A DNA stretch of 44,874 bases, counting the filler, from Jimgerdemannia flammicorona (Eukaryota): the NCBI GenBank assembly GCA_003990765.1. It is 2 parts of 2 records of this genome, joined end to end, with 100 filler letters (N's around TTAATTAATTAA, not from the genome) between each part and the next. Parts side by side here need not be neighbours in the genome. Positions count along the whole stretch, not along the records: positions 1 to 22,392 come from RBNJ01001288.1; positions 22,493 to 44,874 come from RBNJ01001289.1. One strand, written 5' to 3'. Under the pieces are notes generated by a model. It was not told the DNA's origin, ran no database searches, and worked only from the letters and a program-made list of their open reading frames with translations. The position numbers and the translations under genes are program-made. Each line of letters begins with the position of its first letter. Positions within the stretch are counted from its first letter, which is position 1. Of this stretch, positions 16,424-39,938 are shown piece by piece.

Positions 16424-16619
16424 TATTGGTTATTATTATGCATCTCGATAATGTGGCTTAGACACGTGATACTTTGTAACTACGTCATCTTTGAGCTACG
16501 TCATCTTTGAGCTACGTCATCTTTGAGCTACGTCATCTTTGAGCTACGAATACGTGCTATCTGGAATAATAAACAAAGCCCTCTTCTCCCCACTCCATAT
16601 TCCCAACTAAGATACAACA
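16424..16619 (+). repeat. 5' LTR of copia element, with an internal 16-bp tandem repeat (x4.3)
   Basis: Shares TTATTATGCATCTCGATAATGTGGCTTAGACAC...CTATCTGGAATAATA...CAACA with 21334-21417. CTACGTCATCTTTGAG starts at 16480, 16496, 16512 and 16528. Confidence 0.88.
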
Positions 16620-16621
16620 AA

Positions 16622-16635
16622 GGTTATGAGCCCTG
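16622..16635 (+). promoter_or_regulatory. Primer-binding site, half-tRNA-iMet type
   Basis: GGTTATGAGCCCTG lies 2 nt after the LTR end and matches the Ty5/Drosophila-copia type PBS, which pairs with the anticodon region of initiator tRNA-Met. Confidence 0.8.
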
Positions 16636-19048
16636 GTTAGTGGCTAATCAGAAACACCTTTTTAAGACTGTATGCTACTTTATGCTAAGATGTCATAACT
16701 AACAAATCAAGGAGTTAGTGTGAGTATATCAGTCACAGTAGGTGTGGGTACTCTCAGAATAGATATGATGGTCACAGTTCCCACAGCAAGCATAAACACA
16801 GCCAAGAGGTCAATTCCTATCTTTGATGATAAGGATTATGCTATTTGGGCACTTCATATGAGTAATCTTCTGGAGAAGTATAACTTAATAGAATATATAA
16901 AATTATAAATATAGATTTAAGATTATAATATTATAAACAATCACTAAATATTATAAGAGATCATTTTTATATGATTAAACTAGCAAATAAAGCTTATAAT
17001 ATACACTATGATAGTCTACAATGTGTGAGAGACTCTATGCAATTATTATATATATTCTTATTAAATTAGTTTTATCTGAAATCTCAGCTTATTCAATTTA
17101 TAAATAAATACTAAGAAAAGTATTATAAATATACTAATTATATCAATGATCTGGTGAATCAGATGAATTCTCTGAGTATGCCAATAGAGTATATCAGTGA
17201 TAAAGACAAGATTTTAATCCTTATAAGAGATCTCTCTAAGATAAATAATAATTATATATAAGAGTAAGAAACTTACAGACTATATATATTATATAATAAT
17301 AAGTCTCATTAATGAAGAGATGTGTCAAGGAAATAGTAGTAATAATGATAATGAGAAAGCATTCTATAGATCATATGATAAGATAAAAAGCACTAATAAG
17401 ATCAAAAATATAAATCTAAGTTTGATATAAACTATTATTACTATAATAAATATAAATATATATAAGAGTAATATTAATTGGTATATGTTTGAGCTGAAAG
17501 CTGACAAGTATATATTTCTTAGATATTCTGATAAGATATATTAACTTTAAGATCTATATAAATATTATATAGTAATCTTGCATAATATATAGTTTAACAA
17601 AAAAGAAAATTAGGAACTCTATATAGATATATCTATTAGAATCTCTACTTCAACATCTACTTCAATATCTACTTTAATATTTATATCTCAGCCAATATAA
17701 GTATGTATAACATCTGGTATTAACTTTTTTAATAAAGTAAAATTATTTTTAACTATTATATATATCTGAGCCAGAGTTATCTAAACTAAGAATAATAGAG
17801 ATTAAAGATATGTAACAAGACTAATAATGATAATAAAGAGTCTATCAAAAATAAGAAAAAGTCAAAATATAAGTTTAGAAATAAGACTTATTCTAATTTA
17901 GAGAGTTATTAGAATATATTAAAGATATCTCAATATAAGAACTATGTGAGCTATATTGAGATATATAAATATATATTTATTATAACTTCTGGCAAGCCAA
18001 GTATATATAATAAAGTAATAACTTCTTCTAACAATAAGAGATAGAAGTAAGCCATAGATAGAGAGTATAATTTACTTATCAAGAATAATATGTAGGATCT
18101 AGTACTTCTTCTGATCAATCAATAAGCCATAGAATTATATTAAGTTTATAAAATTAAGTATAAGTATGATAGAAGTATAAAATAGTATAAAACTTATTTT
18201 ATTGCTAAGAGTTATTTACAAGATTATAGTATAGACTATGATGAGATATTTTTGCCAATATTCAAACTTACTTTGCTAAGAATACTTCTTATAATTAGTA
18301 CTATACACAATCTGAAAATCTATCAGATAGATATAAAGATGGCTTTTCTTAATAGTAATATAGATATAGAGCTATATTGTCAACTATAAGAATATGAGCA
18401 GAATGATGACCTCATATATAAACTATATAAAGAATTATATAGCATTAAGTAAGCAGCTTATTTATAGAATAGAAAAATTAATAAATATCTTCTTAATAAA
18501 TAATTTTATATACTGTAAAGTAGATAATTACATATATATTCAATACCATACCAATGAAGTAATATTTATAGATATATATATAAATAGATGATATAATTAT
18601 TATTATAATAAAAAGTAAGCTTAATAGAGTCAAAGAAGTCCTATATAAGGAATTCAAGATGATAGATATGAGTAATGTATTCTTCCTTTTGGAGATATCT
18701 ATTATATATAATAGAAGTATATATATTATATATTTCTTATAGTTAATATATATCTAAGCTATCCTCAAACAATTTAATATGAGTAAATATAAGTCTATCA
18801 GTATCTTTATAGAAATATCTATAAAGTTAAAAAAGTTTAAAACTGATAATAATAAAAACTATATCAATATTTCTTATTAACAAATAGTTGGATCTCTTAT
18901 ATATATATCTCATACTAGAAATGAGACCTGATATCTCATATACTATAAATAAGATAGTATAATATTTATGTATCATACTATATACTCACTCTCAATAAAT
19001 TGAGTAGGAGTAATAGTAATATATAATAATAAAGACAATAGTATATAT

Positions 19049-20216
19049 AGTTATTACACTTCTTTCTCCACTACCTTACCAATTATAAAGTTTGGTAGAT
19101 AACCTTCTAAGTCTTCTTTCCTCTATTATTACCCCCTCTACCTTAGATTGGTTTACTGTATCTGTAAGAGCATGGTAAAAGGAGGGTAATGATAATGAGT
19201 TACCCTTTTGTCAGTATCAGATTAGTATCTTCTTTACTTTTTTACAGTTTCCAGTACCTTCAGCTGCATCTGAGATACATATACTCATTTTGGTGCAGTA
19301 TCTTCTTTCTTTTGTTATTATCAATAAGAAGTTATTTTGGTATATTACAGATTATATAGAGAGTTGGCCAATCTTGGATATCAAGTGCCTAGTATAGGTT
19401 ACCTGCAGGTTCTTGGTACCTATGGTAGAGCTTTCTGGTATTGGCAAGCTTCTCAGTGAGTATGGTTCTGATATAGATAACTACTTTTTGAGTGATGTCA
19501 AGATAGGAGGGAAGATAGCCATCACAGATAAAAAGAAGAGTAATAATGATGAATCAGTAGAGTACCAGGCTGGGAGTAGTCATTGGGGCTAGAGTGGGTA
19601 CTGCTTCAGTAGAGCCTTTTGATTGATACAGAGTAATTAGATGGTAGGTATCACTTCTAACTTCTTTTGATAATTCAGTAGGTTGGGCCCTGATCATTGA
19701 GAGGGTTGGGGAGTCTGAGGCTACCTATTTCAGGTATCTTAGCTACACTCAACTAAAACTAAGAGCTGATACAGCAATATGATCAAGGTCTACAGACTTG
19801 AGTAAGGGGTCTTCTCCCATCTTATGTATAAGTTCTCTACTCATCTCATCTGAGAGAACTAGGCCCTATCCACTATAATGTACTTTGATGAGGGTTTTTT
19901 CTTTACCTATTATTCTCTTTAGGGTAGTAGAGACTATTCTATTTAGCTCAGATATAGTCTTATATATATATTGGGGTTTTGGATATACACTTTCAGTTGT
20001 TAGCATATGACTGAGTTCTCTCTGATAGTAGAGAGAGTATAGTGTATAGAATGAGATATAGACCAACATAGGCCCTACTACACCTAGTATGGTTAAGCTG
20101 CTGGACAATAGTTAGTCTAAATTAATAGAGGAGCAGTACTTAATGGGTGGTAGGGGAGAGTTTTGGCCTATATAGTCTAGGTTCTCTTCTAATAAAAATC
20201 AATAAGACTTTGAGTC

Positions 20217-20288
<72 letters not shown>
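19049..20288 (+). mobile_element. ~1.2-kb polyadenylated non-autonomous retroposon, copy 1 (inserted in copia pol)
   Basis: AATAAA at 20191, a 68-nt poly(A) at 20221-20288, flanking direct repeat AAAGACAATAGTATATAT (19031-19048 and 20286-20303), and full-length similarity to the reverse complement of 38189-39437. Confidence 0.85.
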
Positions 20289-20290
<2 letters not shown>

Positions 20291-21099
20291 CAATAGTATA
20301 TATCTATCTAATATATATAATACTAATTAGGCTAGATACTTAGATAATCACTGATTTACAACTAGATATCTCTTTTAATTAAATGATAAAGAAGTTATAT
20401 TTTGATAAATACATAAGTAGAGTTTAGTAGTAATATCATCTATATAAGTATCAAGTATTATCTACAATAATAAAGAAAGTTATTTAATTATATTAGCTAT
20501 TAAAGAAACTTAGATTTGATCAGAAATGATACTCTATTCTCATTTATTAAGATAATTAGTCTATGATTACTATAGTAAAGAATCCTATTTATTATAGCAG
20601 AATAAAGTATATTGATATATGTATAATACTATTATATATATAAGAGAATATATAGAAAATAAAACTATATACTTAGAATATATCTCTATAGAGTATATGA
20701 TTGCAGATTTACTTACTAATGCTCTTCCAAGACCTAAATTCAAGCAATACACTAAAGAATAAGTCTTATGGCAAACTATATACTAATAATAGGTAATTAT
20801 AGAATATTTTATAATAAAAAGAAAGCAGAAAAATAATATAATATATCTCTCTCTTTAAGCATTTTATTGTATTATTATTCACTAGTTATTCTTCTTCTTC
20901 TTCTATATTTGAGATTTTCTACCATCAGAATCTATCTATATTTTTTATTTTTACTATAGTTTCTTAAGCTTTAAGTATAAGTAAATAGTATTCTTTTAGT
21001 ATATTTACAGTTATTTTGCAGTTATTGCTTAGTTACATTACATTATATTCCTGCTTATATTGCATATTATCTAATTGAGCAAAAGTGTTGAAATTCTTA

Positions 21100-21333
21100 T
21101 CCCTTAGATGATAATGCAGCTAAATTTGGCTTTAAATTTTTGAAAATTCATAAGTCTGAAAATTATAATAACTTTTTAAATATACTTTTTTTTACCTCTG
21201 GGTAAAATTTTATGAAATTAAAATTAGATGAATTGAGTTATATTTTTAATAGAAAATGCAAACTTGAAAAAATCAGATATTCTCAATAAAAAAATCACTG
21301 CTAAAAAGACGTTCCCATATACCATCTAAGGGA
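21100..21333. mobile_element. MITE (~234 bp) inserted in the copia 3' LTR
   Basis: Terminal inverted repeats TCCCTTAGATG (21100-21110) and CATCTAAGGGA (21323-21333), with TTA on both sides and an AT-rich interior. Removing it restores a contiguous LTR start TGTTGAAATTCTTATTATGCATCTCG. Confidence 0.72.
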
Positions 21334-22144
21334 TTATTATGCATCTCGATAATGTGGCTTAGACACATGATTCTTTGTAACTACGTCACTCGATGCGCTA
21401 TCTGGAATAATACAACAATTGGTTAACTGTTCACTTTTTCTCTTTCATTATTTGCATTATCATATTATTTCTAATTCTGTGTGTCATCATAAGTTAAATA
21501 AAATGCGCAAAAGAAAATGACATTATTGCCATAAAAAAACGTAGAACAAACGTTTTTCTATACTATGTTTCTTTACGTGAACCGTTCCCTGACCATTTTG
21601 TGATTATGCAAATGCGTTGCATGTCACTTAAAAAGGTCGCTAACAGGTCGATATTCTCAGAAAAATTTCCGGAACTCCCATATCCAAATGTTTGAGTACT
21701 GAAGCAAGGACTCAACTATAATGTCCATCATTAAACAAATAAATATTTTATTACCCTCTTGAGAAGGATGAAGATATAATTATAACAAATCGTATTTAAG
21801 AGGTCGCCCCGAACTCGGCCATGAGCAACCTCACAAAGAAATTAAGAAAGAAATAATATTACATAATGGAGAACAAAAGATATAAATTGGAACAGTCAAA
21901 CAAAAGCAGTTCTATTAATGGTCAATTGGGGATTTTGTGAACTTAGAACTGCTTTATTCAATACATTCTTAGGGGTGTTTATACAATTACATACACCAAG
22001 GAAGGGAGAATTAATGTGCTATCTATGCTTGTAATACACTGAGGTCATTGGCATGGAAGGTCTTGCCAGCACCACACATATGCTTTTCGTTCTTGTTGAC
22101 TGCATAGTGGCGTAGTACAGCCAGCACTACGCCACTATCACACC

Positions 22145-22392
22145 TAGTGCTCCGCAAACCCGACCCGATTAACCCGAAACCCGACCCGTAAAACAGCCAA
22201 CCCAGAATTAGACGTCACCCGTCTTTAACCCAACCCGGAATTATACGTCACCCGTCTTTAACCCGACCCGGAATTATACGTCACCCGTCTTTAACCCGAC
22301 CCAGAATTGTACGTCACCCGTCTTTAACCCGACCCGGAATAATACGTCACCCGTCTTTAACCCGACCCGGAATAATACGTCACCCGTCTTTA
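22145..22392. repeat. 33-bp tandem repeat (~6 copies, runs into gap); possible subterminal array of a DNA transposon end
   Basis: Unit ACCCGACCCGGAATTATACGTCACCCGTCTTTA with period 33, preceded by TAGTGCTCCGCAAACCCGACCCG with ACCCG motifs. The transposon assignment is inference. Confidence 0.8.
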
Positions 22393-22492
22393 NNNNNNNN
22401 NNNNNNNNNNNNNNNNNNNNNNNNNNNNNNNNNNNNTTAATTAATTAANNNNNNNNNNNNNNNNNNNNNNNNNNNNNNNNNNNNNNNNNNNN
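22393..22492. other. Assembly gap with artificial spacer
   Basis: A 100-nt block of N with TTAATTAATTAA (stops in all six frames) at 22437-22448, typical of a contig-joining linker. Confidence 0.95.
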
Positions 22493-24705
22493 CCACATTG
22501 CAGCCCCCCCCCCCATTTCTTAGTTCAATCCTGTAAGTTCACATCTATCTCATAACAGACATCCTGCAGTAAAAAGAGATCCACCTCCAGTCTCTTTAGC
22601 TATCAAAATATGGACTTTCTCCTAGCTGCTCCCCATAACCCATTCACATTTAAAGAGAATATTCTAATTGTACTGTTCATATTGAATAATGTTTGAATTT
22701 GAGACCCCAGCCTGGTATTCCATACTCATCTCATCCCCAGCCAGCTGCTTCCAAGTCCCCCTCTGTGACAGCCTGAGCATCTAATGCCCTCCAAGATTTC
22801 TTGATATTCCACCCCATCTACCACCTCTATCTCCAACTGATAGTCTGTACATACCACTCTCCACTTCTCCAATCCCTTCCTCGAGCTCCACAAGTAAGCT
22901 GTTTGATCATTTGCAATCTCCCTAAGTTCCTCCTCTCTCTGATCATTGATCTGATATTCAACTGATTCCAAGAGGACTACTAGGATCTATTCCTCACCTT
23001 TTGCAGCATCTCCTCACCATGAAGGATTTCCTCCCAATGCCTCTCTTCTATAACCTGAAAGTCCTCTCCCCCCGGCACCTCTACTATCACCTCTTTCAGA
23101 GTCTTCCACAGCCACTTCTCCTCATCTGCTGCCTCCACCATACCCTGAGTGACCTGATCACTCTCCACCTCTGGGTCCACCAAAGTGTTCCTCCTTACCA
23201 ACTCATCCCACTCCTCATCTGGTATATCCAGCAACTCCTCCTCACCTCCTGCCTCACTTGGGACACTATACTGAGGGTAAACCCCTTCACTCATTTCCAC
23301 ATCTGCCTCTACACTGCCCTCTCTCTCCTCCCTCAGTCCATCCTGGGCCCCACCTTGGGCTGTCCTGTGTTCCTCTGCCCAGGCACTCACATACAATCCT
23401 ACTCTCCCATCTCCTTTGCTGCTGCCAGCCCCACCATTGCCCAACTTCACCAGCAGCTCCTTCTGGATCCTTCTCCCCTGTATCTTCTCCCAGGTCCCCC
23501 AATCCATCCTGATCCTCTTCCCATCAACTACTTCCACCACTGTCTTGGCTTCATACTCCTTCTAAGCCAATCTCCTCCTCTCAACTGCATCTATCAGATC
23601 CTCCAGAGCCTCAAGCAAATCCTCCTCCTCTTTCTGAGTTCCCTTCATCCACATGACCTTACACTCCACTGGGCTCCACTTCAGGGTCACCAGCCAATCC
23701 CTCATCTTCCCCATGTTCTCCTTCCTGGCCAGCCTTACCCGAATGTCAATGTCACTAGTCCAGAGCTCTGTACCCTCTCAGACCTTGAACCCGATGTCTA
23801 CAATCTCACTATACTCCTTGACTGCCCCCACAATCAGCTCTCTGGCCCTCTCCCTTGATACCATAGGAAGATCCAGCACTGTCAACTACACCACTCAGGG
23901 GTCCCAGCACATACATCTGGCCATAGAGACCACAACCCCACCCACTGTCACCCCCTTCTTCATAGTAGCCAGAAATACTTCCTCTTTCTCAAATCCCACC
24001 TCAACTCCTTCTTTCCTCTTCAAAAACTTCACCAATGCTGCCCCTTTTGTCTCTTATGCCACCAGCCCCAAGATCATCCTTGCAGTCACCACCAAGCCCC
24101 TGAAACACATTGTGACAGTAAATTCTGATCTTGATTTCTTGAGTAACAGTGCTGACACCATACCCGTCACTCCATCTGCCAGGTCCCCAGGCCTCGCACC
24201 CACCCTCTATTCTGAACCATCAACCACCATCACATCTGGATTTTTTTCCAGATCCCCAGTCACAGCCCCATCAGCAGTCACATCCCCAGCCCCTACTCCC
24301 CCCCCTCTCCTACTACTGGACACTCCCCTGGGCACTCCTCTCTATCCCCCAGCAGTAGCTGTCAGCACCTTCCTCAGGCCCAGCCAACCATCCAGACTAG
24401 AGGCCATTCTCCCCATCTTGATCTTGTCAGCAAAGGTTGACCTCTCCCCTCCTTGCTGCCTCAGGCCACCCCTCCCTCCACCACCAGTGCCTTGGCCAGC
24501 CATTAAGGCCCCTGGCATCTCCAAACCATCTCCCCTCCTCTCTACCTGTTGCCAGCCAAAGGCCCCACTGCTCTCCAGGCCAGTACACTCATCTGTATGA
24601 TCATTGCCATCCATATCAATAGTCATTGATTACCAAAAACATTATAAAAAGTATTGTCTGAGTCTTATGTCACCCAAATGATACCAGTGAAAGGTGATTG
24701 GGATT
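22493..24705 (-). mobile_element. L1/Tx1-type LINE: long ORF1 and start of ORF2 (AP endonuclease), truncated by the gap
   Basis: ORF2 starts at ATG 22680 and reads MNSTIRIFSLNVNGLWGAARRKSIF**LKRLEVDLFLLQD, the APE motifs (SLNVNGL; D...LQE-like). The upstream ~1.9-kb frame 24620-22726 has scattered stops and an RRM-like segment VV*LTVLDLPMVSRERARELIVGAVKEYSEIVDIGFKV*EGTELWTSDIDIRVRL. Confidence 0.82.
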
Positions 24706-25690
24706 AGTTGCAGTCCTCCTTTTCCTCCTCACTTCCCTTCACCCTTGATACCTTACAGATGATGGCCCCCTACATCAGTACCAAAGGTCAGTCACTTGTC
24801 TTCCCAGTAGTCTCCTTCCCAGCCAGTCAAATTCTGACATCAATATCCTCAGTCCTGAAGGTAGTCCCCTCCCACATCTGGAACCCAATATCTATCATAT
24901 TACTATATTCTGCCATCACCTCCTCTACCCTCTTGTTAGTCTCAACCTTCATCACTGTAGGCACCCCCTTCACTAGTAGCTGAACCACTCTGAGGTCTCA
25001 CCTCAGATAGTGCACCATAAGGACTACCACTTCCCCTATAGTCATTCTAGTCTTCAATATTACTTCCAGTGAGCCAGCCTCCTTAAAGCCCACCTCCACC
25101 CCCTCCAGCCTCTTCAGGAACTTTACTGAGATGGCCCCAGCCATCTGTTGAGAGATAAGTCCCAGAACCATCCTTGCTATCACTATCAAGCCCCAGAATC
25201 ACAAGGTTATAATAAACTCTGAGATCAACTTCTTGAGCAATGGTGCCACCATTAGCTCCATCACACTATCAGCTAGGTCCCCCTTCCTCTTTGGTCCCAA
25301 CTGCCCAGCCCCACCATCAGCAGTCACATCTGTATTTTTTTCCAGATTTCCAGTTACACTTCCATTAGCAGTCCCCCCCCTACTCTCAGCATCCACTCCA
25401 CTAGCCCTTCTCCCCAACTGCTGAGAGGCTGCACCTCCTACCACCCCTTCCCTCTGCTTCCCCTTCCCCTCTGCTTGCCCACCACAAGCTCCAACAGGCC
25501 ATCCTCCAGCCTTCAGTATATCTGCAAAGCTCTGCTCCCTCTGCCCTCCTGCCCCACCTCTAGTGCTACTCTCCCTGCCTAAGCTACCCTACCCACTCAG
25601 ACCACTGAAAGATCCTATCCCCAATCCAAACCCACAACTGATATATTACCAGTCAAAGGCTCCAGATCCACCTGACCTAGTATACATACT
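24706..25690 (-). mobile_element. Second, diverged copy of the LINE ORF1 (5' portion)
   Basis: Collinear with 23660-24450, e.g. GSVTGNLEKNTDVTADG vs GAVTGDLEKNPDVMVVDG, GDLADSV vs GDLADGV, VKFLKRLEGVEVGF vs VKFLKRKEGVEVGF. Confidence 0.8.
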
Positions 25691-25833
25691 GGCTTGCATA
25701 TTTATTGCTATAATCTTAGTACTTTTCTCCAATAAACATCTTGAAAGTATATTATAAAGTATGTATAATGTGAATAGTATCTGAGAAAGGTCTGACAATA
25801 TATTGATTTAAGATATTATCTCTATTATAAGTA

Positions 25834-27123
25834 TGTAGAATCTATAGATTTGTAGAAAAATGATTGAGTTATTTATTATTTAGTAATGTGAATTTACATA
25901 TATGTTAAGATTGATAATATATATATATCATATAGAGTCATATACTTATATAATATAGTTGATAACCTAATTCTACCACTTCTGCTCTATGATATATGTC
26001 TCAAACAATATAGTAAAATTAAATAAAAGACTATAACCTATAAGAATTAAGTTGTAATACTGGAATATATACTATCTATATATTAAAAAATATCTGAATT
26101 CTCTGCTTATAAGTCTGAAAATAGGTTAAGAATATAGTAAAAGATTCTCCATAGTTAGATGCCATATAGGTAGAAATAAATATCTACTCATGAATGAGAG
26201 ATATAAGTAATATTAGAGATAGATATAATATAAGACTTTTAGAAGCCTGAAAAGTCTCATGATTTCTGTTAAAATATCTAAATACTAGTTACTAGTATAG
26301 TTTACTGATATAGAGTTTCCATTATTCCTATTTCTTATATACAAAAATTGAAACTTATCTTTAAAAGAGCTTTAGTTAATAAATCTGCTATCATATACTT
26401 CATTAGTATATATTCTAGATTTATAGTGCTATTTTCTATATATTTGTATATAAAATACTATTGAATATGGATATATTTGGTTCTGTTATAATGTATAGGA
26501 TTCTTTACCAATATAATTGTAGATTAGTTGTCTTGCTGGAATAGTATAGAGTGCTGTTGCTTATATCATAACTTCTTTAACAGTTGTTGAAGCTATATAC
26601 ATAGCTTTCTTTGTTGTCATAGAGAATATTTAATATTCTGCTTATATAGATAATATTACCACTAAAGATTTTTTGAATATTTGCTATAAAATGACTCCTT
26701 TTTTGCTAATTTTAAAGAAGTATCCAGTCATAGAGTATCAATCATTGATATCTCTAGCCTAAACTATATTATATATATCAGATAGCCTCATACTACTTCT
26801 GTTTGATTTAATGCTGCCTAAAAATAGTATATAGTATACCAATCTCTTGATATACTAAAGAATATACTTAACTATCATTCAATATATATTATTATAGTAT
26901 GATGAGTACTGTACTACTTTGTTTATAGAATACATCAGACCTCATCTCAAGCATAAGATACATAAGCTTTCCTGTAGCTTATCAATAGGGAATATTATTA
27001 TTAGAGACAGTATCTGACTTTTTTAATTTTATTAAAGTATCTGAAGGAGTTCTAATGAGATTACAGTTACTTATTCCAAATCATTCTAGAATAACTTATA
27101 TATATATAGTTTGTGATAGATAT
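25834..27123 (-). mobile_element. Second Ty1/copia relic, 3' part (RT end, RNase H, probable 3' LTR ~25834-25978), interrupted by the gypsy element
   Basis: Minus-strand NPIHYNRTKYIHIQ*YFI...MIADLLTKAL (~26370-26510) and YLSQTIYI*VILE*FGISNCNLIRTPSD (~27040-27120) are copia RNase H/RT motifs. The element appears to resume for a short distance after 37630. LTR limits are approximate. Confidence 0.75.
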
Positions 27124-27611: not shown

Positions 27612-30600
27612 ACTTTCTTCTAAATAGGTGATTTATCTCTGAAACATCCTATTCACTTGAACTCCCAAGCTTTCACTAGTTGAATCTCCTTGTACTGTAT
27701 GATTTGTATCATTATATTCTCTCAGTAGTGTATTTTGATATGTCCAAAGTCTCCTGGGACTACTCCTCAGAAATGGGCTAGAGCTGGCTCATCATCTTTG
27801 AATAACTTATTAACTTATTTGACAATTATGATCTGAGTGTAAGAGAGCTGGCACTCTCTAATTCAGTCTTCTTTTTTCATCTCTAGCTTTAAGTTCAGTA
27901 GCTATCTCAACTTGAAGTATTCTTGAAACTCAGTCTAATTCTAGTAGGTCTTGAAATGTGAAATTTATAACAAGTGTATCAGAATAATACTCTGGATACT
28001 GTTAAAGAATTCTTCCATAATCAGTAGCTTGGTAATATACCATTGTCTTTCTATGGCTCATTGTGCAGTACTGGTGATCTTGAGGACTGTGGCAGTACTC
28101 TGTTGATTAGCCATAATACTTCTTGAGTCAATTTCAGTAAATGGTAGTGGGGATGATTATGCCTGAGAGTTTTTGTAGCCAAAAAGTAATTCCTTTTATA
28201 TCTTGCACAAGGTAAGGTCTTTCTCACTTAGGCTCTAGTTTTTGTGACCATAAAGCTTTTATTATATTCTGATATATCAGGACTTTGTCTCCTATCTTAA
28301 GAATCTTCAGAGGCTTGTAAATCTATTCTGCATTATTTCACTGTAGTATCTGTATCTTAGTTATGTAATCCTCAGTCTTTTTTCTGATTTGGTTTATTCT
28401 CTGTATCCATAAATTTCTATAGAGTATCTCTATTTAACAATAAGGTTTTTTGAGAACTTTTTTCTCCAAACAGTATCTCTTAAGGGGTAAAATAGGTACT
28501 TTGTGATTAGATATCTTGAAGAGCAGATAATGCTATTGGCAGATAGTGATCTCAGTTTTTATAGTTATCACAGATCTTGGTGATGATATTCTTGAGGATC
28601 TTATTGGTCCTTTCTGCTTATCTATTTCCCTGAGGGTAATAGACTATAGTCTGAATATACTAGATCTTATACTTCTTGTAGAGAATTCAAGAATTCTATT
28701 TCTCTATCTGTAGTTACTTATGCTAGGGTCTTGAATCAGCAGATGATTTCATTATGAAAGAAATTGGCAATTGACTATATATTGATTTCCTTGAGGGGTC
28801 CTGCCTCTATCCATTTTGTGAAAAGGTCTATAATAACAATGATATATTATTAAAGTCAGAGATAGAGGGCTAATTACATCTATTGCAATATGTGCAAAAG
28901 ATACTGGTTCTATGTATGCTGATTCTGAGGTCTGATTTCATTGATCTTATTTCTGTTTCTGATATTTGTTATAGGACATGATAAATTATCTGATATCTTT
29001 CTCTATTCCTGACCACCACATTGTTCTTTTTACTTTATTATATGTGATTGTTTCTCCTAGATGGCTGAGTTCATATACTGATTTCATTGCTTGCTCTTTC
29101 TTATATTCAGATATAATTAGTGGCTTTCATCAGTATTTCTCCATCAGTCTTGAATTGTTTCTATATTCTGATGATAATTGTTTGAATCCATTCTTCCAGA
29201 TATTAGAGCATCTTTCACTATTCCAGGTAGGTGATAATTCTATAATAGAGTTTCTTATTCATGATTCATTTATTAGTTGAGAGTTCTTTGGAATTTCTAT
29301 GAGAGGGCATCTGTATTGGCATTAGTTCTTCTAGAAAAGTGTATGATAGTTACATTACTGGCTTATAACTTCATAATCTATCTGGTATAGATTCCTTTGA
29401 GTTATCTAGTAGTCAGCAGCTGGGTAAGAGTGGAGTTGTCTGTCTGGATAGTAAAGTGTCTTTCTGCAAAATAGTAGTGAAACTTCTCTATGACCCAGAT
29501 AACTGTAAGCTATTCCAACTTATAGGATTCATACTCCTTTTTAGCTTCTCAGATTCTTTGGCTGAGATATGCAATGATATATTCTACTTTGTCTTTCTTT
29601 TAGGTCAGAATGACTCTTAGTTCTTAGGTACTTATATCTATCTACAGGATGAATTCTTGAGTCCAATCAGATCTTCTAAGGATAGATACTTGGGTTAGTC
29701 TAATCTTAAGCTTATCAAATGCTTTCTGTTATCTACCAGTCCATTGGAACTTGATATCATTTTTGTTGAGTTCATAGGTTGGGCCTGTAATGTTGGAGAA
29801 TCCTCTAATAAATCTACAATAATATGAGATAAGTTCTATGAAGACTTGGGCTTCAGTGATAGTAGTGGGCCTTGGGTATGCTACTACTACTTGAATCTTG
29901 AGCAGGTCTGTGTATATTCCATCAGTTGATGATATGACAAAGGTAGAAGATCTCAATTTCTGCAAACTTATACTTTCTGGGCTTGATGTAAAGATAATAC
30001 TGTCTTAGCTTCTCTATTATCTGCTGGATATACTGCAGATATTCTTTGGCTGTCTTACTATAGATAATAATATCACTATATAAATCATCATTCATCTTTC
30101 CATATTATAGTTGAAGATTTTGTTCATTATTTACTAAAAGCTTGCTAGTGTATTACATATTCCAAATAGTATTCACAGATAGACATAGGTTCTATCTAGG
30201 GTAATGAATGCTGATTTTTCACTTGCTGCTTCAGTGAGGCCAATCTGATAGAATTCTGAGTATAAATCCAAGGTGCTATAGTACTGTGCTTTATCTTCTA
30301 GAGTTACAAGGATGTTACTGATGAGGGGTAGTAGTTGATGATCCTTCTTTATAGTCAGGTTGTGCTTCCTGTAATTGGTGCAGAGTCTTGGAGCAAATTC
30401 TCCTAGTTTGCTTCCTTTTTTGGGGGCCAATATAACAGGTGAAGCCCAAGGGCTACTGGTTTCTTCAATAATACTGACTTCTTCCATCTGCTTGATTTCT
30501 TCTTGAAGCCATTTGTGATAGACTGGCAGAATTGACTTTGTCTTTTGATAAATTGGTTTGGTGTCTCCTATGTCTATATCATGATAGTAGTGTGGAGTCT

Positions 30601-30769
30601 TTCTCTTAATATTCTTGAAGTCTGTAGTAAGGACATCCTCAAATTTATAGAGTATCTTCTTGAGTTCCTTCTTGAGTGGGAATTTATTTCTGATAGTATA
30701 GTTATACTTGTTTGTAGTTTCCTCCTTCTTGTGATCTAGTTCTGTAATATTGATATTAGTAAATACTCC

Positions 30770-31135
30770 TCTTTCTATAGATCCGAATTCTTTCTTTCCT
30801 CATTCTGTTTCCTCCAACTTCTTAACTTCTATAATCTTCAGCTGAAGAACTGAGAGAATCAATATCTGCACCAATTGGTCCTTCTTCTTGATTGGAAATG
30901 GAATTGTAGGATTGTGGTTTCTAGCAATGAGTAGTATTTCCCCAATATAGTCTGAATCAATGACTCCTCCTTCAATAGTAATCTCACTCTTAGCCAGACT
31001 ATTTCTTGTCTTGAGGATCATAATATAGTCCTTTGGAATGGTCATTTCCAGACCAGTTGCAAGCAGAGTAATTGTCTGAGGCTCCAGTATAGTTTTCTCT
31101 ACTATGGCAATATCCATTCTAGCTGTATTCTCTGA
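30770..31135 (-). pseudogene. dUTPase domain within gypsy pol (copy A; copy B at ~34580-34945)
   Basis: Degenerate versions of the five trimeric dUTPase motifs occur in order between PR and RT: ARMDI, KTRNSLA, GGVIDSDYIGEI, DQLVQIL, *GKKEFGS. Confidence 0.88.
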
Positions 31136-34100
31136 CTTATATTCTGATAGAACTACATCAGGATGGATTTTCCAAATCTTGACCTTGATTTCTTCTTTAT
31201 CATCACTGTCCTCTAGGAGGGCTAGTGATTTGTCATTCTCTTCCTCCTCCTTTTCTTGCCTTGCCTGTTTCTTAAGAGCTATTTGTCTTCTTTTATAGTA
31301 GATTTTCTTAATTCTGCTGATATACTGGTAGCAATCATTGATATGTTTCATATAGTACATCTTGATTCTATGAGGGCAGACTCCTTGTGGTATATATTCT
31401 TTAATGATCTTTTTGTACCATTCTTCCTCACTGATCTATCTGACATTTTTCTTCTTTTTCTACATAGTTATCATATAGGCTTCTTCTTGCTCACTTTCTT
31501 CTTTCTCTATCTCAGACAGTATTTCTTTGTTGATATTGATGGAAATTTGCATCTTCTGATCTCAGTGGATGATCTACATCTTCAGACATTGAGGTCAATT
31601 ATTGCTCTGACTTTGTAAAGCCACTGGTTGTTAATGAGAATGTCATAATTAGTAGCATTGATTATGATCATATCTACTAGAATGGTTGCTCCTCCAAACT
31701 TGATGGGAACATCTCAGATCTTTCTCAAAGATATGGTTCTTATACTATCTGCTGTGATGAATACAAATTTAGTTGCTTCTTCAATCTCTCAACCTAGGCA
31801 GTCTGCTGCTTTCTTGCTGAGAAGACATTCTCCTGCTCTAGTGTCAATGATAGCCTCAATGATTCTATCTGCAATTTGATAGGTTGTATAGGCAGATGTC
31901 TTGTAATTAACTTTACTCTCTTCTCTAGAGTCTTTTTGAATATTTTTGATCTTGGTTATCTTCTATTCTTATTTCTTAGTTGTCTCAGAAAGTCCACACC
32001 TCATTTGCTATCTGAATATAGGTATTTCTGCCAGCTGGCCAAAAGTGACATTGACCTTTTGTTGACTGAGATCCTTGAAGATATCATACTTAAAAGTCTT
32101 GGTCTTATGAAGCTTCTTCTTTTCTCCTTCACTGGCTAGAGTAGTTCCTCAAATGATATCTTGAACAGCCTGTTCCAGTTCCATATCTTGATCCATTTCT
32201 CACCTTGGCTTTCTGTAGCAGTTTCCATCTGTTTTTCTACAGAGTTCTTCTTGGGTCTCTCTGCAGTCTCTTGTAGGGTTCTTTACTGACATCTTTCTTA
32301 GTAATCTGTGCAGGGTAGGTCTTCTATTCTTCTTCATCTGATTCTCCAATCTTATCAAAGATGATGGTATTGACCTGTTCCTTATTTCAAGTAGCATTGC
32401 TTGGCTGGATCTTTTATTTGATTTTGCTCATATATTTATTTGAGTAGTGGCCTTCTTCTCTACAGGTGTAGCAGATACCTCTCATTTTGTCTGTAGTAGC
32501 AGCAAATGTCTGAACTGAGTAGTAGTCTCTTTCTCTAATTTCCTTTACTGCATCTCTAAGATGGGCTATTATTTCAGCAAATTTCTTAGCAAGTTCCTCC
32601 ATTGGGTCACTGTTTCTCTGTTGCTCTGCAGCTTTTGGCTGAGGTGTGTTTTGATTGATTACTATGATAGGAATTATACTGGTTGTCTTGAGTGCTTTGA
32701 TTCTGACACTATTGACTCTTTCTATTGTGTAATCTTATAGATATCTGGCTATCCAGTATCACTGAATATAGGTAATCTTTTGTGCTAGATCCAGGACCAC
32801 TAGTGATGAGTGGGTGGCCAGGGCTATCTCTGGATAGACTCCTTTCATAAAGGTTGCCTCAGCTACTTGATCTTAAATAGTAGCAGCATAATTTATAAGG
32901 ATTATCTGATATTGAATTTCAGGTATGACTAGTAGCTTTTCTTTCTTTAGTATTTCTTCATTAGTTTCGAATTGTTTCTATATTTTGTTGATAATTATTT
33001 GTGTCTATTCTCAAAATATTGGGGCATATTTCATTATCCCAGGTAGGTGATAGTTCTATAGTAGAGTTCCTTATTTATAGTTTATTTGCTGATTGGAGTT
33101 CCTTTGGAGTATCTGTGAGAGGGTATCTGCATTGGTATTGGTTCTTCTAGGGCTGTGCACAATGGTTATATCATAAGCTTGCAACTTCATAATCTATCTC
33201 ACATAGATTCCTTTGGGTTACCCAGTGGTCAGTAGCTAAGTGAGGGCTGAGTAGTCTATCTGAATAGCAAAGTATCTTCCTGCAAGATAGTAGTGGAACT
33301 TCTCTATAGTCTAGATGACTGTGAGACATTTCAACTTATAGGATTTATATTCTTTTTCTGCTCCTTGGGTTCCTTAGCTTAGATATGTAATAATATACTC
33401 TACTTTATCTTTTTTCTGAGTCTGGACTGCTCTTAGTTCTTGTGTACTTACATCTGTCTGTAGGATGAATTCTTGGATCCAATTGGATATTCTGAGGATG
33501 AGTGCTTGAGTCAGTCTGATATTGAGCTCATCAAATGCTTTTTGTTATCTATTGGTCCATTGGAACTTGATTCTTATTGAGTTTGTAAATTGGGCCTGCA
33601 ATATTAGAGAATTCTCTAATAAATCTGTAGTAGTATGAGATGAGTTCCATGAAGGCTTGGGCTTTAGTGACAGTGGTGGGCCTTGTGTATGCTACTACTG
33701 CTTGAATTTTGAGCAGCTGTGTGTATTCTATCCTAGTTGATAATGTGACCAAGATAGGAGATCTCAATTTCTGCAAACTTACACTTCTTGGACTTGATGT
33801 ATAGGCTATACTTTCTTAGCTTTTTCATCATCTGCTGGATATGCTGTAGATATTCTTTTGCTGTCTTGCTGTAGATGATAATATTATTCATATATACTAC
33901 CATCTATCTTCCTATATCATATTGGAAGATTTTGGTCATTATTTGCTAAAAGCTTGCTGGTACATTGCATATTCCAAATAGTATTTGCAGATAGACATAG
34001 GTTCTGTCTGGAGTGATAAAGGCTGATTTTTTGCTTATTGCTTCAGTAAGACCAATCTGGTAGAATTCTGAGTATAAATCCAAGGTACTGTAATACTGTA

Positions 34101-37100
34101 CTTTATTTTCCAGAGTTACAAAAATGTTACTGATGAGGGGCAGTAGTTGGTAATTCTTCTTTATAGCCAGATTGAGCTTTCTGTAATTAGTGTAAAGCCT
34201 TGGGGCAAATTCTTCTAGTTTGCTTCCTTTTTGCAGAATCAATATGACTAGTAAAGCCCAAGGGCTGCTGGCTTCTTTAATGATACTGGTTTCTTCTATC
34301 TGCTTGATTTCTTCTCTGAGTCATTTATGGTAGACTGGTGGAATTGGTCCTACTTTTCAGTAGATTGGTTCAGTGTTTCCTATATCTACATCATAATAGT
34401 AATATGGAGTCTTTCTCTTAATATCCTTGAAGTCTGTGGTTAGGACATCCTCAAATTCATAGAGTATCTTCTTGAGTTTCTTCTTTAGTGGGAATTTATC
34501 TCCAATAGTATAGTTATTGCTTGTTTGTAGTTTTCTCCTTCTTGTGGTCTAGTTTGGTGATCTTAGTACTGGTGAATACTCCTCTTCCTATGGATCTAAA
34601 TCCTTTTCTTCCTCTTTCTGTTTTCTCCAACTTCTTGACTTTCATGATCTTTGGCTGAAGAACTGGGAAGATTAACATTTGTGTCAGTTAATCCTCCTTC
34701 TTGATTGAAAATAGAATCATAGAATTGTAGTTCCTAGTAATAAGTAGTATTTCTCCAAAATAGTCTGTATTAATGACTCCTCCTTTGATAGTAATCTCAC
34801 TCTTGGCCAGGTTGCTTCTTGTCTTGAGAATCCCAACATAATCCTTTGGACTAGTTATTTCCAGATCAGTTGCAAGTAGGGTAGTTGTCTAGGGCTCTAG
34901 TACAGTTTTCTCTACTGTGGTAATATTTATTCCAACTGTATTCTCTGACTTATATTTCAGTAGAACTACATCAGAGTGGATTTTTTAAATCTTGACCTTG
35001 ATTTCTTCTTTATCATCACTATCCTTCAGGAGGACTGGTGGTTCATCATCCTCTTCCTCCTCCTTTTCTTGCTTTGTCTGTTTCTTGAGCACCTTCTGTC
35101 TTTCATAGTAGATTTTCTTGATTCTACTGATATACTGGTAGCAATTATCAATATGTTTCATGCAGTATATCTTGATTCTATGAGGGCAGACTCCTTGTAG
35201 TATATATCCTTCAATGATTCTTTTGCACCATTCTTCTTTACTGATCTATCTAACTTTCTTTTTCTTTTTCTGAGTAGTTACTATATAGACTTCTTCTTGC
35301 TCACTTTCTTCTTCCTCTATCTCAGGCAGAACTTCTTTGTTAACATTAATGGAAATTCACATCTTTTGATCTTAATAGATGATCTATATTTTCTAGACAT
35401 TGAGGTCCATTATTGCTCTGGCTTTTTGAAACCACTAGTTGCTGATGAGGATGTCATAATTAGTAGTATTAGTTATGATCACATCTACTGGAATAATTGC
35501 TCCTCTAAACTTGATGGAAATATCTTGAATCTTTCCTAGAGGTGTGGCTCTTATACTATCTGCTGTGATAAATACCAATTTTGTTGCTTCTTCAACCTTT
35601 CAACCTAGGTAGTCTACTGCTTTCTTACTTAGGAGACATCCTCCTACTAAAGTGTCAATAATGGCTTTGAAGATTCTGTCTTCAATTTGACAGATTAAAT
35701 AGGCAGAGGCCTTGTAATTGTCTTCACTTTCTTCTCTCAAGTCTTCTTAAACATTATTGGCCTCAGTTATCTTCCATCTTTATTCCTTGATTATCTCAGC
35801 AAATCTATATCTCATTTGCTGTCTAAACATAGGTATTTGTGCTAGCTGGCCAAAGGTTGCATTGACCTTTTATTGGCTGAGATCCTTGAAGATAGTATAC
35901 TTAAAGATCTTGGTTTTGCACAGCTTCTTCTCCTTTTCTCCTTTACTGGCTGGGATAATTTCTTAGATGATATCTTGAACAGTCTGTTCCAACTCCTATC
36001 TTGATCTTGATCTGTTTCTTCAGCTTGACTTTCCATAGTACTTTCTATCTGTTTCTCTATAGAGTTCTTCTTGAGTCTCTCTAGTGGTCTCTTATTGGGT
36101 TGCTTGCAGACATCCTTCTTGATAGTCTCAGCAGGATAGGCTTCCTATTCTTCTTCATCCAATTCTCCAATCTCTTCAAAAGTAATAAAGTTGGTCTGCT
36201 TCTTATTTCAAATAACATTGCTTGGCTGGGTCTTATATTTGGTTTTACTTATATATTTATATAAGTAGTGGCCTTCCTCTCTATAGATATAGCAGATACC
36301 TCTCTTCTTATCCAAGATGGTAGCAAACTTCTACACTGGGTGATAGTCTCTTCCTCTCATTTCCTTTACTATATCTTCTAGATAGATAGTCATTTTGGCA
36401 AACTTCTTAACAAGTTTCTTCATAGGATCACTATTTCTCTATACTCAGTAGCTTATGGCTGAGGTGTGTTTCAATTGATCACTGTGGTAGGAATTACACT
36501 GGTTACCATGAGTGCTTCTATTCTGACTCCAGTAACTCTTTCCATTATCTGGTCTTATGGATGTCTAGCTATCCAGCATTGCTGGGTATAGGTGACCTTT
36601 TGTATCAGATCCAGCACTACTAGTAATGAGCAGATAGCCATAGCTATCTCTGGGTAAACTCCTTTCATAAAGATTGCTTCAGCTACTTGATCTTGGATAG
36701 TATTGGTATAATCTATAAGAATTATCTAATATTATATTCTAGTGTAAAATGTATTTAAATTCTTACTCATTTCTTGATATATTGTATTGAGCTTATCCTT
36801 CAGAGCTTGCTTGATCTCATCTATATTATAGATAGTTTGGAGTCAGGCCTTCTGTGCTACTAGCACAGTATCATCATTATTTCCCATAGATTACAGCTGT
36901 TAATACTGCTCTTGCTGGTCCTCAGAGACTGAAGAGTATGGAGACTACTTGCTATCTTACTGTCAGGGTTCTTACAGCAGCATACTGCTTGAAATTATCA
37001 ATGAAGATAATGATTAATTTATCTGAGGTATGTATATCTATAGAATACTAGTGGTCTCATATCTATTTTGTCTAAATATCTTGATTCAATTTGTATAGTT

Positions 37101-37162
37101 GTTTGTTGTTTAGCTTGAAAGTGAGAGATTTGTCTTGAATCACCACTCAATAGGTACTAAGT

Positions 37163-37630
37163 TATAATATAGTAGATATATAACTGTATAAGTATGTTAG
37201 ATTTCTATATCTTAAAAACTTGATCTTCTTTAACTCTACAGAGTTCTTGAGATGCAGGAGTGAGTGAGTTTGAAGTATATCTGCCTGCAGACTTAATAGT
37301 TCTCTTACTTTCTCTTTGCTTTAAACTATTTTGATCTAAGGTTTATTTATACTAGATACTAGAGATATTTATACAAGTTTGCTAGCTATAAGATAGCTAA
37401 GTTATAAGTTATTTTTTGTAAATATTGCATTATTTTAGCATCTGTAGTATCTTTAACAATTGCAAGAATTTCAGCATCTACAGAATCTTTAATGATTGTC
37501 AAAGTTTTCTATATTTACAAAATATGACTACTATTTATAAGACTATACTATATTTGGGAATTGGATTCAGATATTGTAATCAAATATCTATTTCTCTGAT
37601 TTATGTTCCTAATTCAGATCAATTATTATA
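37163..37630 (-). repeat. gypsy 5' LTR
   Basis: TATAATATAGTAGATATATAACT...CAGATCAATTATTATA, a direct repeat of 27124-27611 differing mostly by transitions. Confidence 0.88.
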
Positions 37631-38185
37631 ATATATTATCAATTTATATAAATAATCAGATATATCAAATCAGAATAGCTATCTTTTGAGAGAATATATA
37701 TCTTCTGAGTGAATACTTCTCTTCTGAGAAAACATCCATTTTCTTAGAGAATAAGTAGTCATATTTTTTCTAAATTAGCCTTACTATATATTTCATAATT
37801 ATTCAGATAGAAACCAGATAGTAACCATACTTATATAAAATATCTCAGAGATTTTAATAAATAAACCTCAGTCTGAAAAGTCAAAGTAAAGCAAAAGCCA
37901 ATTATTTGATATACTTAGAAAAATATCTACTAAAAGTCACTTGATCAAAGAAGGATTATGATATATCTGCTAATAAGCCACTATTAAGAAGTTGTAAGCT
38001 TTATTTCTTTTTTACTCTAGTCTATTTTCCAATATAATAAAGTTTGTTAATTTTGATATATATATATATATATATTTATCAGATTAAGTATAAAGAGAAG
38101 TTTACTAAATTTTAATCTACTTACTAGATGAAGTCTGAAGAACTTTGAGAAATCCACTAATTTTTTATATTATATAGAATTTATA

Positions 38186-38188
<3 letters not shown>

Positions 38189-38251
<63 letters not shown>

Positions 38252-39437
38252 ATTTAAAAAAACTCTAAGTTCTGTAGATTTTATTAGAAGAAAACCTAGA
38301 CTATATAAATCAAAACAACCCTCCATCTCTCTTCCTGAACATTGCATATCTATTAATCTAGACTTACTATTATATATCTAGTAGCTCTATCATACCAGAT
38401 ACTGTAGAGTTTATTATAACCTATATCTTATTCTGTATATCATACTCTCTCTACTACTAGGGAAAAATAACCATATACTAATAACTGAAAGTATATATCT
38501 AAAACTCCAATATATATATAAGACTATACTAAAGCTAGATAATAAAGTTCCTGCTACCCCAAATAGAGTAACAGTCAAAGAAAAAACTCCTTAAAAAATA
38601 TAGAACAGTTGGTAGAATCTGCTTCTTACCAATAGAGTGAGTGAAAAACTTATATATGAGATAGGAGGAGACTCTCAATACTCTACTACTCAAGTCTATA
38701 GGCCTTGATTACATAACTATATCAGCTTCTAATTCCAGTTAAGTGCAGTCTAAATATCTAATTAGGATAGCCTTGAGCTCTTCAATAACTCTAAATAACT
38801 AGAGCTCAACCCCATATATTACTAAGAGTTACTGAGAGTTATATCTACTATATACATAACTACTTTATACTAATCAGAAGGCTCTACTGATATAGTATCT
38901 GAACCAGTCCTGATGACTGTCACCAGTCTGACACTCAACTGGTCTATCATAATTACTCTTCTACTTATTTGTAATGGCTATCTTCTCTCTCATCCTAATA
39001 TTATATAAAAAGCAGTTAACTATATCAGAACTATACTCACCAGAAAGCTTGCCAAAGCTCAGAGGGCTTCACTATAAGCACTAAGGATCTGCAGGTAATC
39101 TATACTAGTAATTGATATTAAGATTGACTGATTTTCTATATAGTCTATAATATACTGAGATAATATCTTATTGATAATAGTAAAAGAAAGAAGATACTAT
39201 ACTAAAATAAGTATATTCCAGATATAGCTAGAGGTATCAGAAACTGTATAAAAGGTAGAAAAAACACTGATCTAATATCAATAAAGGGGTAACTTATCAC
39301 TATTGCCTCCCTCTCACTGTTCTGCAATAGATACAGCAAACCAACCTGAGGTAGAGAGGGTAAAAGTTATGAAAAAGAGATTCAGAAGATTGTCTACCAA
39401 AATCTTATAACTGGTATAGTAGTAGAGAAAGAGACAC
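38189..39437 (-). mobile_element. ~1.2-kb polyadenylated non-autonomous retroposon, copy 2
   Basis: Poly(T) at 38189-38251, a body that is the reverse complement of 19049-20220, and flanking direct repeat AGAATTTATACTCTTT at ~38176 and ~39438. Confidence 0.85.
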
Positions 39438-39938
39438 AGAATTTATACTCTTTAGAAAACTGTCTTGTTATACTGAATTTGTATCTATTAAGAAAATTAC
39501 TAAAATTATTCATATTATATAAATACAAGAACTTGTACTTTTGGAAACCAATCAAATGTTTTATTACTTTTTGACAATATAACTGAGAGCTCAAGCCAAA
39601 CTTACATGGCTACCCCACCTTGTAATTTACCTCTATTGAGTTAGCACATTATAGTATATATTGGTTTTTTGTACATTAAATAACCTTGTTTTTTTTTTTT
39701 TAAAAAAAAAAAAAGTTCTTTTAAAAATCAAATTTGACATCTGTATCAAAGGAATAGATATTATAGTAAATATTAGTAAATATAGTAAATTTATATTAGT
39801 ATAATATTCATATGTAGATGTCATCATTCTTGCATCATCAGGAAATCTTTGGAATTCATAAAATCACGTAACTAGAGATCAATAAAAGCAATCCCCGTTT
39901 CTCTGCTAAACACTCCAGTAATCCCAACATTTTCAAAC

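Follow-up and report, generated by a model that had tools for sequence, protein, structure and literature searches.

Polarised, context-dependent C-to-T decay in transposon relics beside untouched genes of the Mucoromycota fungus Jimgerdemannia flammicorona

Two contig ends of the Jimgerdemannia flammicorona genome (GenBank assembly GCA_003990765.1) carry transposon relics that have lost nearly all of their CpG dinucleotides and lie directly beside genes of normal composition. This raises the question of whether the fungus inactivates transposons through their cytosines and, if so, by a process comparable to the repeat-induced point mutation (RIP) of ascomycetes. The window analysed here is the whole stretch of 44,874 nucleotides, built from one piece of record RBNJ01001288.1 (1-22392) and one of RBNJ01001289.1 (22493-44874), and it holds relics of Ty1/copia and Ty3/gypsy retrotransposons, of a poly(A)-ended element (element Z) and of a probable long interspersed nuclear element (LINE; element Y). 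A preliminary description of this sequence had proposed a single RIP-like domain with sharp borders at 16640-39860.

Loss of CpG and the borders of the affected blocks

Three compositional states are found along the window: gene-bearing DNA, blocks with few or no CpGs, and an island of normal CpG content. The left gene flank (1-16553, GC 0.49) holds 1049 CpGs against 978 expected (observed/expected ratio, o/e, 1.07) and the right one (39867-44874, GC 0.44) 231 against 241 (o/e 0.96), whereas the block at 16554-21309 retains none of the 84 expected and the range 22493-39866 nine of 524. Broken down by segment, all five transposon stretches have a CpG o/e of 0.00-0.04, and the left flank, the island and the right flank reach 1.07, 1.16 and 0.96, a compositional difference that is real and far beyond chance. 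The surviving CpGs lie at 27209, 30784 and 32968, the three noted before, and at six further positions within 22882-24195.

The transitions are abrupt. The last CpG ahead of the blocks lies at 16553 and the next one past them at 39867, where GC also recovers after having fallen from 0.57 to 0.29 across 300 bases at 25600, and about 75 bases separate the end of the right block from the start codon of a gene with BTB and SPRY domains. Because an artificial spacer of 100 bases (N44-TTAATTAATTAA-N44, 22393-22492) joins the two contigs, the proposed 23-kb domain resolves into two separate transposon blocks at contig ends, which need not be neighbours in the genome, with the spacer and a CpG-normal island (21310-22392; 47 CpGs observed, 40 expected, o/e 1.16) between them. 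The preliminary description was thus right about the scarcity of CpG between CpG-rich flanks, except over the island, and about the sharpness of the borders, but these are not the edges of one domain.

The island is made up of the second copy of a short repeat, AT-rich DNA that retains its CpGs, and a CpG-rich 33-base tandem repeat (22200-22392; 5.8 copies, 95% match) that reaches the left contig end. By alignment, the short direct repeat occupies 16436-16575 (plus strand) at the left edge of the copia block, and its second copy 21327-21412; identical 28-mers, none of which would be expected by chance, occur at 16438 and 21339, and the first copy includes a 16-base tandem repeat (4.3 copies at 16480-16548, Tandem Repeats Finder). 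As an observation in its own right, these unmutated, CpG-bearing repeats exactly bracket the CpG-free copia block, with 4.75 kb between them. A search in purine/pyrimidine space showed no homology beyond their ends; a small mobile element, remnants of long terminal repeats (LTRs) or something else are all candidates for their origin.

Spectrum, polarity and sequence context of the decay

The damage goes beyond the loss of CpG, consists overwhelmingly of GC-to-AT transitions and is seen only in the copia, gypsy and element Z relics. Four repeat pairs of this one window supplied the evidence, the main substrate of the spectrum analysis being a tandem duplication of 3.8 kb within the gypsy element (29106-32913 and 32918-36733, minus strand; 80.5% identity) that spans protease, dUTPase, reverse transcriptase (RT) and RNase H. 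Its copies differ by 604 transitions and 105 transversions in one count (transition/transversion ratio, ts/tv, 5.75) and by 622 and 106 in another, in which both strands are affected, with 288 C/T and 334 A/G differences. Over the short interval singled out earlier (30241-30360 versus 34052-34170) all 14 differences are indeed transitions, nine A/G and five C/T. The gypsy LTR-like repeats (27123-27612 and 37162-37631; 76.6% identity) display 70 transitions and 21 transversions (ts/tv 3.3), and the two copies of element Z 229 and 75 (ts/tv 3.05). A lower ratio of 1.47 (72 and 49) was obtained for the copia C-terminus pair, the most diverged of the relics (68.6% identity, GC ~0.22), as saturation of its cytosines would produce. 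As controls, a CpG-rich tandem array of the left gene flank (4444-5397) gave ts/tv values of 0.7-1.6 and an internal repeat of the LINE 1.15 (46/40).

The direction of change was determined from 150 gypsy relatives aligned to both duplicates; the best of these relatives are mostly concatenated pseudoscorpion models and are of no use for placing the host. Codons were kept if covered by 15 or more relatives with agreement among 70% or more of them, giving 320. Changes were found in 134 of these, 98 of them through a single unambiguous step. Merging the 21 changes common to both duplicates leaves 77 independent events, namely 55 GC-to-AT transitions, five AT-to-GC transitions and 17 transversions. 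The common changes (21/98) show that damage occurred both before and after the duplication, which therefore took place in DNA, within an element that already carried damage. Between the duplicates there are 66 positions with CA in one copy and TG in the other, as results when the same ancestral CpG is struck independently, on different strands, in the two copies. The protein-level examples given in the preliminary description are borne out, together with its claim of damage beyond CpG: the copia translation at 18033-18068, around the cited position ~18043, reads NKR*K*AIDREY just upstream of the RVT_2 match, with TAG, TAA and ATA codons in frame, and the catalytic motif of the second gypsy duplicate reads VVYMNNIIIYS (33868-33906, minus strand), with YMNN in place of YMDD.

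How often a cytosine has changed to T depends on its 3' neighbour, in the order G (saturated) > A ≈ C > T. In the gypsy duplicates the change per lineage amounts to 0.25 at CpA, 0.22 at CpC and 0.08 at CpT, and at inferable ancestral CpGs to 0.49 of a possible 0.5; these rates assume the GC-to-AT direction, an assumption that the polarised events justify. A stricter count, confined to sites with an identical 3' neighbour in both copies, gives 261/531 differing sites at CpA, 114/230 at CpC and 92/587 at CpT (chi-square p ~1e-36). Both strands follow this order, as do the Z and LTR pairs, which makes three repeat pairs in all, and the polarised events distribute as 29 at CA, 15 at CC, 8 at CG and 3 at CT. 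Neither the 5' (-1) neighbour nor the +2 base had an effect in the gypsy duplicates, and the inferable ancestral CpGs are all mutated whatever base precedes them (ACG 6/12, CCG 22/44, GCG 10/20, TCG 28/58, with a ceiling of 0.5 by construction). Editing of cDNA by an APOBEC-type enzyme was considered and rejected, both strands being affected and a 5'-neighbour rule being absent.

This context rule differs from the CpA-only rule of Neurospora RIP, and the CpA-to-TpA change, which the preliminary description names as the ascomycete RIP signature, is not specific to these relics: CpC and CpA are struck with equal frequency, CpT alone being spared. The sliding RIP indices behave accordingly (TpA/ApT, (CpA+TpG)/(ApC+GpT) and a composite taken as positive above 0, with thresholds from general knowledge; the substrate index is inflated by CpG-to-TpG conversion). 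Over copia and element Z (~17.5-20.8 kb and ~37.9-39.7 kb) most 300-base windows have a positive composite index, and nearly all gypsy and LINE windows have a negative one.

The decay has two tiers: CpG is lost in every element, and C-to-T decay outside CpG is found only in the copia, gypsy and poly(A)-element relics. The two are separable, since the LINE keeps 6 of 154 expected CpGs and yet a GC of 0.50; part of its CpG loss may be a property of its family.

Host, gene flanks and anatomy of the transposons

The host was placed by the protein matches of two exons. One, at 12650-13132, belongs to a phosphatase-like gene (12650-13735, minus strand) and shares 94% identity with a Jimgerdemannia flammicorona protein. 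The other, from the PFK2 gene (exons at 1330-2098, minus strand; Pfam 6PF2K), gave five matches at E <= 0.001, all from Mucoromycota, namely one in J. flammicorona (72%), one in Endogone sp. (65%) and three in Entrophospora (52%). On these matches the host belongs to the Endogonales in Mucoromycota, outside Dikarya as had been supposed, and is not an ascomycete. An Atlas search with the PFK2 exon gave a mixture of phyla that did not decide the placement. Intergenic and intronic DNA of the flanks has a GC of 0.42-0.50. BTB paralogues and copies of one composite copia and Z element are present on both contig pieces, which fits a single genome.

The window has three BTB-domain genes, one of them with SPRY: 10028-10507 (minus strand, Pfam BTB), 11193-12188 (plus strand, Pfam BTB) and the BTB-SPRY gene at 39941-41474 (plus strand, ATG at 39941; Pfam BTB and SPRY). 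A search of 5.8 billion proteins with the largest BTB open reading frame (ORF) returned zero relatives, and these genes may form a lineage-specific expanded family. The left flank also contains a CpG-rich tandem array (4459-5283) with periods of 31, 92, 105 and 155 that is open in several frames.

The left block is a degenerate Ty1/copia element (16554-21309, plus strand) with a GC of 0.26, and of 0.15-0.23 over most of its length; it includes an RVT_2 domain (~18084-18510, plus strand; Pfam, E 5.8e-20) and a C-terminal RNase H region (~20284-20726, plus strand). Inserted within it is element Z (19061-20321, plus strand), with a perfect A68 tract at 20221-20288, and an inverted second copy of element Z lies at 38160-39432 (minus strand; 72.7% identity by self-BLAST), with a T63 tract at 38189-38251 (96% match). 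The A68 tract has stayed perfect amid a 27% difference between the surrounding Z copies, which agrees with damage limited to C and G, although slippage can also keep such a tract pure. A second copy of the copia C-terminus, inverted and 68.6% identical to 20284-20726, is found at 26365-26804 (minus strand) within 25701-27122 (GC 0.24, CpG 0/20), and the remainder of the second composite copy occupies 37632-39866 (minus strand, CpG 0/40). The junction between copia and Z is thus present on both contigs (19061-20726 versus 38160-39432 plus 26365-26804), which indicates that the composite was copied whole, ahead of the insertion of the gypsy element into one of its copies.

The degenerate Ty3/gypsy element, ~10.5 kb long (27123-37631, minus strand; GC 0.34, CpG 3/309), sits within this second composite copy. 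Its recognisable domains, on the minus strand throughout and located in the first duplicate or in the unique part, are a protease (31588-31884, Pfam RVP_2), a dUTPase (30779-31144, Pfam E 1e-16, with a second copy ~3.8 kb onward), an RT (30092-30421, Pfam RVT_1), an RNase H (29366-29743, Pfam RT_RNaseH_2) and an integrase zinc domain (28947-29102, Pfam Integrase_H2C2). The position of the dUTPase between protease and RT, known from some fungal gypsy elements, deserves mention in an element that later decayed by C-to-T changes.

Element Y (22493-25700, minus strand; GC 0.50, GC skew -0.4 to -0.5, CpG 6/154) probably represents the 5' portion of a retrotransposon of the non-LTR (LINE) class. A purine-rich, quasi-open and Glu-rich frame in it resembles ORF1, with 10 stops in 485 codons (2%) and 4.3% Trp; TpG and CpA stand at o/e 1.5 and 1.3, and arginine is encoded by 37 AGR and 2 CGN codons. 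The frames of element Y matched no Pfam family, apart from one sub-threshold domain of unknown function, and an Atlas search with its ORF gave nothing informative. The putative start of an apurinic-type endonuclease, some 60 residues at 22495-22704 (minus strand) cut by the contig end, is suggested by weak PDB matches (E 0.3-1.5, 9 chains, the N-termini of exodeoxyribonuclease, LINE-1 ORF2 and Crc among them) and by a motif that we take to belong to this class.

Origin of the decay

We assessed whether the damage arose in bursts triggered by duplication or accumulated slowly. Mutations of one RIP event lie on one strand, as runs of C-to-T or of G-to-A. The gypsy duplicates showed no strand clustering (148 and 157 runs against ~156 expected), which is weak evidence because many rounds would erase such runs, and their private transitions are nearly equal in number (312 and 310). 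Conserved codons are changed in 38/80 cases in the single-copy integrase part and in 84/187 and 101/211 in the duplicated parts (5/17 versus 58/139 and 71/164 in stricter columns), so that the locally duplicated part carries no extra damage relative to the single-copy one. Genes are spared and the CpG-rich tandem array at 4444-5397 is untouched; nothing within the window shows duplication acting as a trigger of mutation.

Decay rises instead with the age of the element. Transversion divergence is 2.7% between the gypsy duplicates, 4.3% between the LTRs, 5.8% between the Z copies and 10.8% for the copia C-terminus; the nesting order has copia and Z first and gypsy inserted afterwards; and the GC of gypsy is 0.34 against 0.24-0.27 in the older host copia and Z segments. 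Slow accumulation is favoured because strand clusters are absent, private transitions are equal, the integrase part is equally damaged and decay tracks age. With a baseline ts/tv near 1, we estimate the excess over background at about ten-fold for CpA and CpC and four-fold for CpT. Deamination of methylated cytosines over millions of years could supply such an excess, if the rates known to us in general apply here.

Our preferred explanation, held with middling confidence, is the slow deamination of methylated transposon DNA in two tiers, which would have left two transposon graveyards at contig ends with C-to-T conversion confined to transposon DNA. In the first tier, practically all CpGs of every element, the GC-rich LINE included, would have become TpG or CpA, the expected outcome of CpG methylation of transposons followed by deamination of 5-methylcytosine. 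In the second, the older relics (copia, Z and gypsy) would lose cytosines outside CpG as well, with A ≈ C > T and equally on both strands, which would drive GC from roughly the level of genes (0.45-0.5) to 0.35-0.2. The likeliest mechanism would be dense methylation of heterochromatic transposons at cytosines of all contexts, by enzymes of the DNMT1 type and DIM-2-like ones, both reported for Endogonales, with deamination then building up across millions of years. Methylation, enzymes and tempo are what we infer here, beside the composition, polarity, context, borders, age gradient and host that were observed. Both mechanisms offered in the preliminary description were weighed in this way, and the evidence leans towards broad-context methylation and deamination, repeat-targeted mutagenesis being retained as the less probable; in particular, we think a premeiotic, duplication-triggered burst of the Neurospora type less likely.

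A measured parallel for the first tier exists in Rhizophagus irregularis, a member of the same phylum-level group, where CpG methylation has been measured on transposons (Dallaire et al., 2021, PMC8647823). Such methylation would explain the first tier, including the GC-rich and CpG-free LINE. Decay outside CpG with a context rule is a feature of the present relics and not of the Rhizophagus description, and methylation, measured there, is putative here.

Several points weigh against slow deamination. Methylation, above all outside CpG, enters the argument purely as a deduction, and we know of no methyltransferase or deaminase with the order CpA ≈ CpC > CpT. The LINE is 96% depleted of CpG with little other decay, and by our estimate a single slow process would require a mutation rate at CpG more than ~30 times that at CpA; two separate processes, one of them possibly episodic, fit the LINE at least as well, or else its family already lacked part of the CpGs. 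Selection or gene conversion may act on the control repeats, whose ts/tv is near 1, and the whole comparison draws on one window and four repeat pairs. Finally, the Phycomyces methylome, the single one from Mucoromycotina that is quoted in a review, is mainly CG, with 2.2% CG versus 0.3-0.5% non-CG methylation (PMC7862722).

A true RIP-like defence, in which repeats would be recognised, perhaps premeiotically, and their cytosines actively converted to T without RID, is possible although unlikely in our judgement; one candidate route would be a DIM-2-like or heterochromatin pathway with a relaxed context (any 3' base but T). The signature is RIP-like in outcome, being polarised from C to T, restricted to transposons and sharp-edged, with a different context rule and no sign of duplication induction. 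As in Neurospora and other Pezizomycotina, GC-to-AT transitions of both strands are confined to repeated elements, AT-rich relics sharply abut GC-normal genes, here to within ~75 bases of a start codon, and TAG and TAA appear in frame from TGG and CAA. The 3' and not the 5' neighbour decides the target, which is likewise how RIP chooses it. Strong GC-to-AT polarity and high ts/tv are found only in repeated elements, copia and Z descend to a GC of 0.15-0.23 with a positive composite index, and the gypsy duplicates stand at 80.5% identity, near the limit at which Neurospora RIP ceases to recognise repeats. As for the enzyme, DIM-2 alone can drive RIP in Neurospora (bioRxiv 10.1101/115501), and according to Navarro-Mendoza et al. 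(2023, PMC9963178) RID does not occur outside Pezizomycotina and both Endogonales and Glomeromycota have DIM-2-like homologues.

The relics also depart from Pezizomycotina RIP. The host is a member of Mucoromycota, a group reported to lack RID (PMC9963178); CpG sites are struck most and CpC equals CpA, whereas both the RID and the DIM-2 routes of Neurospora prefer CpA, the latter 'very strongly' (bioRxiv 10.1101/115501). The indices fail over gypsy and LINE, one-strand runs and duplication triggering are not seen, damage in the single-copy integrase part equals that in the tandem duplicates, and transversions are comparatively many. Together, a ts/tv of 3-6 and a transversion divergence of 2.7-11% indicate accumulation over a long time. 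The LINE keeps its GC of 0.50; its class amounts to 62 Mb in the J. flammicorona row of a kingdom-wide survey (PMC12543289 S2), which also lists very many repeat matches of 95-100% identity that efficient RIP would preclude (PMC12543289). The genome is given there as ~231 Mb and rich in LTR and LINE repeats (PMC12543289 S1/S2). For Endogonales as a group, a RID-independent, repeat-directed mutagenic defence acting at CpG, CpA and CpC and not at CpT, perhaps by a DIM-2-like or heterochromatin route, seems to us a shade less probable still.

Leptosphaeria maculans bears on how the published screens should be read. This ascomycete has RID and shows RIP of the CpA type, in which it is unlike the present case, and RIP has reportedly been demonstrated in it by experiment; in its AT-rich isochores, as here, GC-normal gene blocks alternate with AT-rich blocks of dead transposons. 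The same survey, which finds RIP-like signatures unique to Ascomycota (Badet and Croll, 2025, PMC12543289), scores L. maculans 'no_rip', with 45/0/0 k-mers enriched in non-coding DNA, in repeats and in both, and J. flammicorona likewise 'no_rip' with 23/0/0 (S14); Endogone sp. has 13/0/0, and the k-mer table of the survey gives a 4.0-fold enrichment of TATA in non-coding DNA. AT-rich k-mers are thus enriched in non-coding DNA only in both fungi, which counts for a RIP-like defence, the 'no_rip' score itself counting against it together with the statement that no RIP signature was detected in either Gigaspora or Mucoromycotina (PMC8647823, citing Venice 2020). Since L. maculans is scored 'no_rip', the label is not strong evidence of absence, and, given the pattern that it shares with the two Endogonaceae, the screen can pass over genomes in which relics have dropped out of the repeat annotation. 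We found no report of RIP in Endogonales or early-diverging fungi, a statement on which the per-k-mer table S13 of PMC12543289 or the bioRxiv supplements may bear.

Another system comparable with the first tier is the hypermutation of transposons at CpG (TpCpG) in Basidiomycota, which Horns and colleagues reportedly described in 2012. Shared with it are the near-total loss of CpG, the excess of TpG and CpA, the restriction to transposons and the unaffected genes; the second tier of CpA and CpC decay, with GC descending to ~0.2, sets the present relics apart. A preference for 5' T cannot show here because all CpGs are gone.

Ordinary ageing, in which CpG methylation removes CpG and AT-biased neutral mutation does the rest in unselected, non-recombining transposons while genes and their surroundings hold their GC by selection or biased gene conversion, is in our view rather improbable. 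It accounts for the growth of decay with transversion age and for strands and copies being equally affected, and in most organisms spontaneous mutations are most often GC-to-AT transitions. The polarised ratio of 55:5, however, implies an equilibrium GC far under the 0.42-0.50 of the flanks, the relics have a ts/tv of 3-6 against ~1 in non-relic repeats of similar divergence, and the 3' neighbour exerts a three-fold effect. The LINE in the same block, with 2% in-frame stops, is still at GC 0.50, and the A68 tract is perfect inside an element whose copies differ by 27%, with the reservation about slippage made above. That the elements were natively AT-rich and CpG-poor, for instance from an AT-rich donor, or that assembly or contamination produced the pattern with no mutation in place, is very improbable: the range does span an artificial join and the arginine codons of the LINE (AGR 37 versus CGN 2) may make its CpG poverty partly a family trait, but each block runs on into normal genes within its contig, in-frame stops and catalytic D-to-N changes mark once-coding sequence that decayed, paralogous copies differ chiefly by transitions, and the 66 CA/TG pairs represent independent strikes on ancestral CpGs.

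The relics of a species scored 'no_rip' thus display polarised, context-dependent C-to-T decay that takes GC to ~0.2 beside untouched genes. Whether by mutagenesis or by deamination of methylated DNA, cytosine-directed inactivation of transposons operates in a Mucoromycota genome, and it leaves a concrete context rule (3' G > A ≈ C > T) that can be compared with the DNMT1- and DIM-2-like enzymes of Endogonales. Screens that contrast annotated repeats with other non-coding DNA can overlook old relics of this kind. The finding also bears on the origin of AT-rich compartments adjoining genes, as at the block edge ~75 bases from the BTB-SPRY start codon. If a RID-independent defence were true, k-mer screens would miss its mark because only old, no longer annotated relics bear it, and RIP-like mutagenesis would either predate Dikarya or have arisen twice, in this case in an early-diverging, plant-symbiotic lineage.

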